From assembly GCF_041886205.1 (NCBI RefSeq), contig NZ_CP169029.1: a stretch of 64,000 bases of DNA; one strand, written 5' to 3'. Every line of letters starts with the position of its first letter. Position 1 is the first letter of the stretch. Under the pieces are notes generated by a model. It searched no databases. It saw only the letters and a list, made by a program, of their open reading frames with translations, and was not told where the DNA came from. Both the position numbers and the translations under genes were made by a program. Source of the DNA: Escherichia coli. Its GTDB lineage: Bacteria; Pseudomonadota; Gammaproteobacteria; Enterobacterales; Enterobacteriaceae. This document shows, piece after piece, positions 19,247 to 23,368 of the stretch.

Positions 19247-19981
19247 ATGTCCAAACTCGATCTAAACGCCCTGAACGAACTGCCGAAGGTAGATCGCATT
19301 CTGGCGCTGGCAGAAACTAACGCCGAACTGGAAAAACTGGACGCTGAAGGCCGCGTCGCCTGGGCGCTGGAAAATCTGCCCGGTGAATATGTACTTTCCT
19401 CCAGCTTTGGCATTCAGGCGGCGGTGAGCCTGCATCTGGTGAATCAGATTCGCCCGGATATTCCGGTGATCCTCACCGATACGGGTTACTTGTTCCCGGA
19501 AACCTACCGCTTTATTGACGAGTTAACGGACAAACTCAAGCTCAACCTGAAAGTGTACCGCGCTACCGAAAGCGCCGCCTGGCAGGAAGCACGTTACGGA
19601 AAACTATGGGAGCAGGGCGTTGAAGGCATTGAAAAGTACAATGACATCAACAAAGTCGAACCGATGAACCGGGCGCTGAAAGAACTGAATGCGCAAACGT
19701 GGTTTGCTGGCCTGCGGCGTGAACAATCCGGCAGCCGTGCCAATTTACCGGTGTTGGCAATTCAGCGTGGCGTATTTAAAGTGCTGCCGATTATCGACTG
19801 GGATAACCGAACTATTTATCAGTACCTGCAAAAACATGGCCTGAAATATCACCCATTATGGGACGAAGGATATTTATCGGTGGGCGATACCCATACAACC
19901 CGTAAATGGGAACCTGGCATGGCGGAAGAAGAAACGCGTTTCTTTGGCTTAAAAAGGGAATGTGGGTTACACGAAGGGTAA
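19247..19981 (+). CDS. cysH: Phosphoadenosine phosphosulfate (PAPS) reductase
   Basis: Start at internal ATG 19247 ([25 protein letters not shown]...), 244 aa, C-terminal ECGLH motif. Confidence 0.95.
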
Positions 19982-20245
19982 ATATTGCCGGATAAATTAA
20001 ACGCCTCTGTCAGAAATGATGGGGGCGTTTTTATTTTGCGAGCAGCATTCCTGATTTTAAACGTGAAAATAGCAGAGGGAATCAGCAGGCATAGAATGGC
20101 GTCGGGTGCTTGAGGCTGTCTGGCGTTGAGCATTCGCGAGGTTCCAGATGGACAAAAGCCCCAGGCGATATTTCTATCAACCTGAGGCCAGCGTTCGAAC
20201 CTAAGCAATTCGGATGTTAGTCTCTTCTTTGCAGGGAGGCAAGAC

Positions 20246-20398
20246 ATGCTGACAAAATATGCCCTTGTGGCAATCATCGTACTGTGTTGTACAGTACTGG
20301 GATTCACGCTGATGGTAGGCGACTCGTTGTGTGAGTTGAGTATCAGAGAACGTGGTATGGAGTTTAAGGCAGTTCTCGCTTACGAATCGAAGAAGTAG
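20246..20398 (+). CDS. Hok/Gef-family type I toxin-like small membrane peptide (50 aa)
   Basis: Unlisted small [53 protein letters not shown]: single TM helix followed by the Hok signature ...SLCE(L/I)..R.....E.A...AYES.K; GGAGG RBS upstream (gcagggaggcaagacATG). Confidence 0.7.
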
Positions 20399-20399
20399 C

Positions 20400-20635
20400 C
20401 ACCACGCGGGGGGTAAAATCCCGCGTACTGAATTGTGATGGTTTGGTCTCCTGCACCCTTTTTAATTTATATTGTTTATGTGAATATTATGCCTGTGTTT
20501 ATTATTTATATGTTTTATAGATGAAAACCATTGAATTATTCACAATGTAAATATTTTAATGAACGATATATATCACAGATAATTTTTAATATATGCGTAA
20601 ATATCCTTTAAGTTTTACGAAAGGATAAAAACATT
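20400..20635 (+). promoter_or_regulatory. AT-rich cas3 upstream/promoter region
   Basis: Strongly AT-rich ~230-bp tract immediately upstream of the cas3 start; in K-12 the equivalent region holds the H-NS-repressed cas3 promoter (from memory). No -10/-35 assigned. Confidence 0.45.
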
Positions 20636-22063
20636 GTGACTTTCTTTGATTTCTGGGGAAAAAACCGACGCGGCGAGAAAGAGGGCGGCGACGACTATCA
20701 TCTACTTTGCTGGCATTCGCTGGATGTAGCCGCGATGGGCTATTTAATGGTTAAAAGCAATTGCTTCGGGCTGGCTGACTATTTTCGTCAACTAGGTTTC
20801 GATGATACGGAGCAGGCAGCACAATTTTTCGCCTGGCTATTGTGCTGGCACGATATTGGAAAATTTGCCCGCTCTTTTCAGCAACTTTATCTGCATCCAC
20901 AACTCAAGGTTCCGGAAGGCGCAAGAAAAAATAACGAAAAGATCTCTCATTCAACGCTGGGTTACTGGTTGTGGAATCATTATTTAATTGAATGTGACGA
21001 GTTGCTTCCTTCCTCTTCACTCTCTCCCCGCAAACTTAAACGGGTAATAGCGATGTGGATGCCCATGAGCACGGGGCATCATGGTCGCCCACCTGACCGT
21101 ATTGATGAACTGGATAATTTTCTGCCTGAAGACAAAGTTGCCGCGCGAGATTTTCTCCTTGAAATCAAGTCACTGTTCCCGCTCATAGAGATCCCCACAT
21201 TCTGGGATGATGACGAGGACGTTGAACTTATAAAACAACTTTCCTGGTATATCTCTGCAACCGTCGTACTTGCAGACTGGACAGGATCGTCAACGAGATT
21301 TTTTCCACGCGTCGCACACCCAATGGATATTAAAGATTACTGGCAGAAGGCTTTAGTGCAGGCTCAAAACGCCTTAACCGTCTTTCCTCCAAAAGCAGAA
21401 ACCGCACCTTTCACCGGAATTAATACACTGTTTCCTTTTATTGAGAATCCGACACCGTTACAGCAAAAGGTGCTGGAACTGGATATCAGCCGGCCCGGGC
21501 CACAGTTATTTATTCTGGAGGATGTAACCGGCGCAGGTAAAACAGAAGCGGCGCTTATCCTGGCGCACAGGTTGATAGCTGCGGGGAAAGCTCAGGGGCT
21601 GTTTTTTGGTCTGCCAACAATGGCAACGGCCAATGCCATGTACGATCGGCTGGTCAAAACCTGGCTTGCTTTCTATTCGCCAGAATCCCGCCCCAGCCTG
21701 GTGCTGGCACACAGTGCCCGCACATTAATGGACCGCTTTAATGACTCACTCTGGTCCGGTGATTTAGTCGGGTCAGAAGAACCGGATGAACAAACGTTCA
21801 GTCAGGGATGTGCAGCCTGGTTTGCCGACAGTAACAAGAAGGCTTTACTGGCTGAAATTGGCGTCGGCACGCTGGATCAGGCGATGATGGCAGTGATGCC
21901 GTTTAAACATAATAATCTGCGGCTTCTGGGGTTGAGTAACAAAATCCTGCTGGCTGATGAGATCCACGCCTGTGACGCTTACATGTCGTGCATTCTTGAA
22001 GGGCTGATCGAGCGGCAGGCGCGTGGCGGAAACAGCGTTATTTTGCTTTCTGCTACGTTATCT
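20636..22063 (+). pseudogene. cas3: Truncated cas3 (type I-E): HD nuclease plus first half of helicase core; 3' half deleted
   Basis: ORF begins at GTG 20636; HD motifs (LLCWHSLDVAA, CWHDIGKF), Walker A (VTGAGKTEAA) and DExH box (LLADEIHA) present; coding sequence ends ...NSVILLSATLS and runs directly into a CRISPR repeat at 22064. Intact Cas3 is ~890 aa; only ~476 codons remain. Confidence 0.85.
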
Positions 22064-22214
22064 GTGTTCCCCGCGCCAGCGGGGATAAACCGCCATTCTT
22101 GTTGTCGTTCATCAAGCGCAGGGGGTGTTCCCCGCGCCAGCGGGGATAAACCGGGTAAATAACACAGCGTTTGAAACAGGCAAAAGTGTTCCCCGCGCCA
22201 GCGGGGATAAACCG
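22064..22214 (+). CRISPR. Residual type I-E CRISPR array (iap-proximal): 3 repeats, 2 spacers, no leader
   Basis: Repeat GTGTTCCCCGCGCCAGCGGGGATAAACCG at 22064, 22125, 22186; 32-bp spacers at 22093..22124 and 22154..22185. Differs from the queE-adjacent array repeat at position 2 (T vs A). Confidence 0.95.
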
Positions 22215-22330
22215 GCGCAATACGGTGCGGTTTTCCCGGAAGTAAACCGGGCGCACTGGATGCGATGATGGGTATGACTTAGAATTCCCCGCCCCTGCGG
22301 TAGAACTCCCAGCTCCCATTTTCAAACTCC

Positions 22331-23368
22331 TCAAGACGCCTTCGCCAGCTCCTTCACCAGCGGTAGCATTATCCGCATAACATCACGGCAGCGACGTTCT
22401 ATTCTTCCAGGAAGTGCCTTATCAATATGTTGTTGATTATCCAGTCTTACGTCATGCCAGCTATTTCCCGCCGGGAAGGCAGGTGTTTTTGCGCGTTGCT
22501 GATAACCATCCTTATTCCCAAGATTCCAGTTAGTCGCTTCCACCGAAAGTACAGCAATGCCCGCTTTGTCGAATATTTCTGCGTCATTACAACACCCAGT
22601 GCCTTTCGGATAATTTTTATTCAAACCCGGATTGGTCGTTGCGGCTATTCCGTGACTGCGCGCAATTGCCAGCGCCCTGTCGCGCGTTAATTTCCTTACT
22701 GCTTCAGGGGTTTTTACACCGCTGTTGAAATACAATTTATCGCCAACAATTAAGTTATCGAGATCAATCACCAGCAGCGTATTTTTCTTTTCGGTGTCAC
22801 TCATCCGCTTGAGTAAATTCTCAGCGCCTAATTTCCCTTCCTCTTCGCCGCTGGTCGCCACAAATCGAATACCATACTCGGTAGGCGTATTTTTCAGGCG
22901 TTCTGCCAGTTCCAGCATGACACCTAAACCTGCGGCGTTATCATCCATTCCTTGTAACGTCAGCCCGCCGAGATTGGCATCGGCGTCAGCATCGCTCAGC
23001 GGGGCGTAAGTATCCAGATGCGCCATAATGATGATCTGCTGCGGCGCTTTGCCTTCATGAGCGGCAATCACCGTACTTCCTGTCACGTTATGCCAGTTCT
23101 TGCGATTATCGCGGGCGGTATAAATATACCGACTATTAAATGTCCGAATATCACTGCGATAACCCATTTGCTGAAACTGTTGGCGAATATAATCGGCAGA
23201 TAACATTTCTGCAGGAGTTCCGGTCATGCGTCCCGGAAAGAAAGTAGCAATATGTCGTGCCTGAGTATTAGCAAAATCGCCAGGTTTAGGTAACGAGGCG
23301 TGTACGGGGAGAATAAAGCATACGCCGAGCGCCAGGGCAGCGGTACGGTGGCGCAATGCGGAAAACAT
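22331..23368 (-). CDS. iap: Alkaline phosphatase isozyme conversion aminopeptidase (M28 family)
   Basis: 345-aa ORF MFSALRHRTAALALGVCFILPVHA... with signal peptide and M28-type metal-binding region (IIIMAHLDT...DDNAAG...SGEEEG). Confidence 0.93.
   Translation of the reverse strand: MFSALRHRTAALALGVCFILPVHASLPKPGDFANTQARHIATFFPGRMTGTPAEMLSADYIRQQFQQMGYRSDIRTFNSRYIYTARDNRKNWHNVTGSTVIAAHEGKAPQQIIIMAHLDTYAPLSDADADANLGGLTLQGMDDNAAGLGVMLELAERLKNTPTEYGIRFVATSGEEEGKLGAENLLKRMSDTEKKNTLLVIDLDNLIVGDKLYFNSGVKTPEAVRKLTRDRALAIARSHGIAATTNPGLNKNYPKGTGCCNDAEIFDKAGIAVLSVEATNWNLGNKDGYQQRAKTPAFPAGNSWHDVRLDNQQHIDKALPGRIERRCRDVMRIMLPLVKELAKAS

Follow-up and report, generated by a model that had tools for sequence, protein, structure and literature searches.

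In plasmid R1, the mok frame comprises 70 codons, overlaps hok, and is needed for its translation, and the Sok promoter with its -35 box overlaps the hok Shine-Dalgarno (SD) sequence. The fold-back of the hok mRNA through its tac and fbi elements has been described for the same plasmid (PMC9841398). In Escherichia coli, the name hokX denotes a homologue of a gene first seen in E. coli B, located in the cysH-iap region of strain NRG857c (PMC7232551). The hok/sokX module belongs to 'Region B' of the CRISPR loci; 90% of the urological isolates carried both genes, and the others had only sokX (PMC12736100). hokX/sokX was found in all CRISPR-I arrangements except that with the K-12-type cas-E2 genes (PMC3903273).

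The locus described here lies in a 64,000-nucleotide stretch of E. coli DNA (referred to as the window). The open reading frame (ORF) at 20246..20398 on the plus strand is the known membrane toxin gene hokX, also called hokG, of the hokX/sokX locus beside cysH. Its protein is identical to RefSeq WP_000956458.1, which is annotated as 'Hok/Gef family protein' and also occurs in O157:H7, M8, Eco889, 21F61, and CFT073; in CFT073, the location of the gene (C_RS15775, hokG) between iap and cysH was confirmed. Positions 20000-20470 are 100% identical to E. coli strain wlxctx60, where the ORF lies between cysH and a frameshifted, truncated cas3. We are highly confident that the locus is the chromosomal hokX/sokX type I toxin-antitoxin system of E. 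coli, including the proposed closure of the mRNA, silencing by SokX, and toxicity. As hokX/sokX was already known, the finding is correct but ordinary. The functional locus begins with the -10 box near 20092 and reaches as far as the fbi element at 20458; an earlier annotation made from the letters of the window (the sequence-only reading) had placed it at 20100-20400, an interval that contains the ORF but is smaller than the true locus.

The hokX coding sequence runs from ATG to TAG and encodes 50 amino acids, with Cys14 in the N-terminal hydrophobic helix and Cys29 and Tyr46 in the C-terminal part. The hok SD sequence GGGAGG (20234..20239, plus strand) ends 6 nt 5' of the ATG; it falls within the invariant GGAGGCAA and shares bases with the sok -35 box of the opposite strand. 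The sequence-only reading had described this ORF as 50 codons with a good ribosome binding site, which is exact, and as a Hok/Gef toxin, which the profile search bore out: HOK_GEF (Pfam PF01848) matched with E=6.3e-10 over positions 1-42 of its 42-position model. The NCBIfam HokA and Hok-subfamily models matched as well (E-values of 2.6e-14 and 3.6e-10), both with scores under the curated cut-offs. In the alignment with HokA-E of K-12, Cys14, Thr16, Leu28, Glu30, Glu39, and Ala45 are invariant, Cys29 is present, and Tyr46 aligns as in HokC, HokD, and HokE. The identities of HokX to the K-12 paralogues are 78% for HokE, 48% for HokA, 39% for HokC, 38% for HokD, and 33% for HokB; these values make HokX a HokE paralogue located elsewhere on the chromosome rather than HokA. 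Assignment to HokA through the NCBIfam equivalog NF007290 was rejected (53 bits against a cut-off of 89, with 48% identity to K-12 HokA).

The pN/pS of hokX against its homologues ranges from 0 to 0.33, and the E. coli alleles differ by ten synonymous changes and one non-synonymous change; these low values indicate that selection maintains the HokX peptide. The matches to Pfam, NCBIfam, and Rfam models, together with this conservation, refute the explanation that a chance ORF resembles Hok by coincidence. A 152-aa ORF on the minus strand (19849..20307) was dismissed as spurious; it runs antisense through the end of cysH, the terminator, and the hok leader. The identical peptide is included in a published toxicity-assay set as homologue 46_982 on plasmid LRP171; in that survey, 42 of 45 Hok homologues were toxic, and the three non-toxic constructs bear ids other than 46_982 (bioRxiv 10.1101/2025.08.07.668861). 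For this peptide, the toxicity assay suggested by the sequence-only reading is in effect already in print.

At least 80% of the segment 20000-20470 is present in 4146 of 5426 complete E. coli genomes (~76%), and 5425 of the 5426 contain at least a partial match; every match is chromosomal. The alignment to K-12 stops at 20248. K-12 has kept the promoter, the entire leader, sokX, and the hok ATG, after which its own cas3 upstream region follows. The K-12 sokX gene (b4701), on the strand opposite cysH, maps to the window from 20206 to 20148. The sequence-only reading had named a K-12 sokX in this interval and had suggested that the ORF may be its intact hok partner; the alignment, which passes through the leader and the hok ATG before diverging, agrees with both.

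Leader alleles were counted as exact matches over the 77-nt segment 20176-20252. The allele of the window, with TAA as the stop of an upstream ORF, is a minority allele matched by 219 genomes; the CAA (M8 type) and TAG (O157 type) alleles are matched by 2328 and 1012 genomes, respectively. A 23-bp patch at 20068-20090, just 5' of the hok -10 box and covering the would-be -35 site, differs at about ten positions from most E. coli alleles, while its flanks are nearly identical. To judge from the sequences, this patch suggests either a variable strength of the hok promoter or a recombination scar. In strains 21F61 and O10:H32, insertion sequences lie beside hokX: IS200C directly 5', replacing the end of cysH, and IS421 directly 3', cutting the fbi region. 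These arrangements recall the inactivation of hokA, hokC, and hokE by insertion sequences in K-12. In Enterobacter kobei (FTNJ01000002.1, 72-753), two hokE/X-type genes, called as 67 aa and 50 aa, are located in tandem about 530 bp apart.

The hokX mRNA is predicted to span ~20104..20464 on the plus strand (~360 nt of leader, coding sequence, and 3' UTR), with its 5' end taken from position 1 of the Rfam model and its 3' end from the fbi element and U-run. Thirteen homologous loci could be aligned to this region over its entire length; they comprise five further alleles from E. coli, a metagenomic contig, two loci each from Klebsiella and Citrobacter, and one each from Enterobacter, Scandinavium, and Superficieibacter. 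With the window, these constitute the 14 homologues referred to below. The putative hok -10 box TAGAAT (20092..20097, plus strand), read from the sequence, lies 6 nt 5' of the mRNA end; the -35 box is poor and falls in the hypervariable patch. TAGAAT, TAGGAT, or TAAGAT occurs at an equal distance before GGGTGC in Klebsiella, Enterobacter, Citrobacter, Superficieibacter, and K-12 hokE. A scan for consensus promoters and terminators listed none of the hok promoter, the sok promoter, and the Sok terminator. The hok promoter was not flagged because its -35 box is weak, and the sok promoter because it scores 8/12 against the consensus; all three elements are sub-consensus and were therefore placed by homology.

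The structured hok leader (20104..20261, plus strand) matched Rfam RF01794 over the full model (1-157) with 108.4 bits against a gathering threshold of 59 (E=1.4e-25), and RF01794 was the sole Rfam family found in the 64-kb window. The family is named 'sok'; however, its consensus starts from the tac sequence GGGUGCUUGAGG and continues up to the region where hok begins, and it therefore represents the sense leader. Sub-threshold Rfam matches to ctRNA_p42d (E=0.006) and Spot_42 at 19939-20039 were discarded, as they correspond merely to the cysH terminator hairpin (19997-20039).

The sequence-only reading had pointed to the fold-back elements of hok mRNAs, and such elements were indeed predicted. 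In the minimum free energy (MFE) fold of RNA 20104-20470 (-126.9 kcal/mol, z=-2.5), the tac element GGGUGCUUGAGGCU (20104..20117, plus strand) pairs with the fbi element GGUCUCCUGCACCC (20445..20458, plus strand), which is followed by UUUUU; nucleotides 1-6 and 9-14 pair with 20453-58 and 20445-50, respectively. For each of the 14 homologues, the MFE fold showed this 5'-3' closure, although trimming the homologue sequences at the GCACCC motif favors this result, and the helix was retained in the consensus fold by RNAalifold. GGGUGC of the tac element is invariant in the 14 homologues. Because six of the pairs are nearly invariant, covariation support for the helix is thin, and the predicted closure is supported by conservation and folding rather than by covariation. 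Citrobacter has C7:G in this helix where E. coli has U7/U. In the consensus fold, two-sided changes are seen in the leader hairpins. In one leader hairpin (20158..20188, plus strand), GCCCCAGG at 20158-65 sequesters CCUGAGGC, the arm with GAGG at 20184-87, in both the MFE and consensus folds; AGCCCC and GAGG show little or no variation among the 14 homologues. By analogy, GCCCCAGG may resemble the anti-SD/ucb element of R1, and GAGG at 20184-87 may be the counterpart of the R1 mok SD (PMC9841398). The 3' UTR contains a GC-rich hairpin, CGCGGGGGG-UAAAA-UCCCGCG (20405..20425, plus strand), whose pairs are kept across genera with some changes.

The SokX antitoxin RNA is predicted to be ~59 nt long (20148..20206, minus strand, starting at 20206), based on the alignment with K-12 sokX b4701. 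It folds into an 18-nt single-stranded 5' tail and a hairpin of 10+4 bp, followed by UUUUGU (-23.3 kcal/mol, z=-2.6). The sok promoter (20214..20242, minus strand) consists of a -35 box TTGCCT (20242 to 20237), a 17-nt spacer, and a -10 box TAACAT (20219 to 20214), 7 nt before the start at 20206, a position that agrees with the annotated 5' end of K-12 sokX. The sequences that contain these boxes, GGAGGCAA and ATG(T/G)TAGTC, vary little or not at all among the 14 homologues, and no indel occurs between them. The antisense partner that the sequence-only reading expected on the minus strand is thus found here as a promoter with conserved boxes and a gene homologous to b4701.

The overlapping mok-like frame that the same reading expected could not be identified: an R1-style long mok overlapping hok was sought in all frames, and none was found. 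In Klebsiella, E. kobei, and a contig designated L013 (ENA contig ERZ13448030 NODE_8936), an ATG equivalent to positions 20195-97 lies in frame, 17 codons 5' of hok and 7 nt after GAGG, and because of this in-frame upstream ATG, gene callers give 67-aa versions of the protein in these sequences. In the window, the corresponding mok start site (20195..20197, plus strand) reads UCG and provides no canonical start. TCG occupies this position in 10 of 10 E. coli hokX alleles, and the three allele classes with TCG exactly match 3559 genomes; a search of the complete E. coli genomes found the ATG-bearing leader to be essentially absent. Contig L013 has a hok coding sequence one synonymous base from that of the window, whereas its leader, with the mok ATG, is only 87% identical; this mismatch in divergence suggests recombination within the locus.

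The mok SD-like GAGG is conserved, yet the homologous start codon is UCG; of the two other small ORFs considered, one is polymorphic and the other confounded. The first (20148..20204, plus strand) has GAGG at 20138-41 as SD and starts with ATG at 20148; it is out of frame with hok and ends with TAA at 20202-04. In CAA alleles, it extends to TGA at 20250-52, and in O157-type alleles it is cut by TAG. Codon 19 is therefore TAA, TAG, or CAA among common alleles, which makes a selected coding frame unlikely, and this ORF was rejected as mok. The second is a mini-ORF of 12 codons (20214..20252, plus strand), a candidate coupling ORF whose stop overlaps the hok start (AUGCUGA). Its ATG is invariant in the 14 homologues; however, this conservation is not attributable to coding because the same bases form the sok -10 box on the other strand. 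In the K-12 annotation, mokC and mokA share the reading frames of hokC and hokA, respectively, and extend them at the N terminus; mokB lies in a different frame from its hok, and no mok is annotated for hokE. The authors of the Hok survey likewise describe Mok as difficult to assign (bioRxiv 10.1101/2025.08.07.668861).

These observations bear on the possibility that hokX is a decaying relic with an intact ORF, silent in translation, whose toxin is never made natively for lack of a mok start, leaving a module without present function. For R1, the mok frame is needed for hok translation, and mutations of the mok start codon or nonsense mutations in mok abolish toxicity (PMC9841398); all E. coli alleles examined have UCG in place of the mok AUG, with the AUG allele essentially absent. 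K-12 has lost the hok coding sequence with no evident harm, and in the P0006 allele a deletion affects both the hok SD and the -35 box of sok. However, the peptide is under strong purifying selection in E. coli, with the one non-synonymous against ten synonymous differences and the same protein from O157 to CFT073. All RNA elements are conserved, the mRNA is expressed and edited (PMC13017025), hokE also lacks an annotated mok, and a strong SD precedes the hok ATG by 6 nt. We therefore consider a silent relic unlikely, and a functional hokX/sokX module remains our preferred reading.

Allele P0006 (81 aa, 424 contigs) has an apparent 5-nt deletion in GGGAGGCAAGACATG, through which the upstream ORF becomes continuous with the hok frame and the hok SD and sok -35 box are partly lost. 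From the sequence, this may be a natural mutation that inactivates or rewires the locus.

Codon 46 of hokX and the following base form a UACG motif in frame 0 (20381..20384, plus strand), in which A20382 is the published TadA A-to-I site that converts Tyr46 to Cys. The mRNA for WP_000956458.1 (CFT073 C_RS15775, 'hokG') was found to be transcribed and edited (c.137A>G, p.Y46C) in urinary isolates and uropathogenic E. coli, with editing of 14.8% (188/1270 reads) and 23.6% (42/178 reads) in two isolates (PMC13017025). The published 21-nt context GUUCUCGCUUACGAAUCGAAG corresponds to 20372-20392 of the window, which identifies A20382 as the edited base; the validation primers of the same study match 20248-20267 and 20388-20407. 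The block GTTCTCGCTTACGAA around UACG is invariant in the 14 homologues. Folding of the local tRNA-Arg-like stem around UACG gave a weak structure, with no stable stem predicted, and the editing claim therefore rests on the published RNA data, not on structure. Editing also occurs at the equivalent Tyr of HokC, HokD, and HokE, whereas HokA and HokB encode Cys46, and a Cys29-Cys46 disulfide is needed for HokB toxicity (PMC12214031).

Downstream of the module, an AT-rich spacer with 18-24% G+C (20465..20635) extends from the end of the hokX mRNA to a cas3 pseudogene; it lies outside the toxin-antitoxin module. The cas3 start used in other strains corresponds to 20593, about 130 nt past the end of the hokX mRNA and on the same strand. 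In the window, the start region is frameshifted by one additional T near 20615 that is not present in other strains, and the truncated frame ends at 22063, where it abuts a type I-E CRISPR remnant (22064-22222) with three repeats at 22064, 22125, and 22186 (61-nt spacing). The genes casA-cas2 are deleted, and iap (22331-23368, minus strand) follows the remnant. The sequence-only reading had placed the ORF upstream of an AT-rich cas3 promoter region; the low G+C spacer is present, but the cas3 behind it is a frameshifted, truncated pseudogene.

The same arrangement raises the possibility, touched on in the sequence-only reading, that hokX acts mainly on its neighbor, with its transcription or read-through modulating the AT-rich cas3 promoter region. 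The position of the locus, with an mRNA that ends shortly before the spacer on the cas3 strand, would fit, and the locus co-varies with the cas-E variant (PMC3903273). However, hokX is unchanged in CFT073 and Eco889, which have no cas genes, and likewise beside a cas3 pseudogene, as in the window; hok genes show no enrichment near defense systems (12% observed versus 9.4% expected); and the fold-back helix with its U-run should terminate the transcript. A main role in cas3 regulation thus appears very improbable, and in this strain any interplay of hokX with cas3 is moot because cas3 is a pseudogene and casA-cas2 are deleted.

Taken as a toxin-antitoxin module, hokX/sokX would work as follows. 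The weak promoter would give rise to the ~360-nt hokX mRNA, which pairing of the 5' tac with the 3' fbi element would keep closed and untranslatable. The promoter overlapping the hok SD would drive the ~59-nt SokX RNA, whose pairing with the leader at 20148-20206 would keep the toxin off. As inferred from R1, slow trimming of the 3' end would open the mRNA, and its pairing with SokX would then lead to cleavage by RNase III. HokX, if translated, would insert into the inner membrane and kill or arrest the cell. Conversion of UAC to UIC by TadA in some transcripts supplies a second periplasmic cysteine, which, by analogy with HokB, should permit the Cys29-Cys46 disulfide required for full toxicity. 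The anatomy, conservation, and predicted structure in this scheme come from our analysis and the expression, editing, and toxicity from the literature; the 3' processing, the RNase III cleavage, the disulfide, and the way in which hok would be translated in the absence of a recognizable mok are extrapolated from R1 and HokB.

Since the mok AUG of Klebsiella and Enterobacter is UCG in E. coli hokX, translational control may differ from that in R1, and HokX may be translated directly or via a short coupling ORF. A broader and tentative reading, which we consider possible but doubtful, is that E. coli hokX, and probably hokE, have dispensed with a Mok leader peptide, with translation gated in a manner unlike R1 and with TadA editing of Tyr46 as a second safety catch. 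If so, ribosomes could initiate directly from the strong hok SD after opening of the mRNA, or by way of the 12-codon mini-ORF. The missing recognizable mok start in hokX and hokE bears on how chromosomal Hok toxins are translated, which is a small question. hokX is a useful point for annotation: filters for ORFs below 60 aa miss it, and K-12 has only the orphan antitoxin. Its value as a discovery is little, as hokX has been annotated, named, mapped against the CRISPR-Cas arrangements, included in toxicity assays, and found to be RNA-edited.

Among known systems, hokX/sokX of E. coli (hokG; between cysH and cas3 or iap) is the same locus, with an identical protein and the same neighbors, leader, and Sok. 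Relative to the usual hokX/sokX, the strain of the window has the minority leader allele, the TAA in the upstream ORF, and the divergent patch at 20068-20090. The closest paralogue is hokE/sokE of K-12, with 78% peptide identity and the same leader architecture, UACG at codon 46, and position of Sok, likewise without an annotated mok. However, hokE occupies another chromosomal site (ybdK-entD) and is disrupted downstream by IS186 in K-12, and a 4-nt insertion before its ATG puts the mini-ORF in frame with hokE, unlike in hokX.

The likeness to hok/sok of plasmid R1 comprises the Hok peptide, the tac/fbi closure, the SD/anti-SD hairpin in the Sok target, and the Sok promoter over the hok SD. 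In contrast to R1, no R1-type mok is identifiable in hokX, and the locus is chromosomal, where post-segregational killing would not be anticipated; according to work cited in bioRxiv 10.1101/2025.08.07.668861, other hok loci on chromosomes did not bring about such killing. In the hokB/sokB system of K-12, a TadA edit of UAC(G) from Tyr to Cys likewise supplies one member of the Cys29/Cys46 pair. The two proteins, which share only 33% identity, differ in the member that editing provides: codon 29 is the edited one in HokB, where Cys46 is encoded, and codon 46 in HokX, where Cys29 is encoded.
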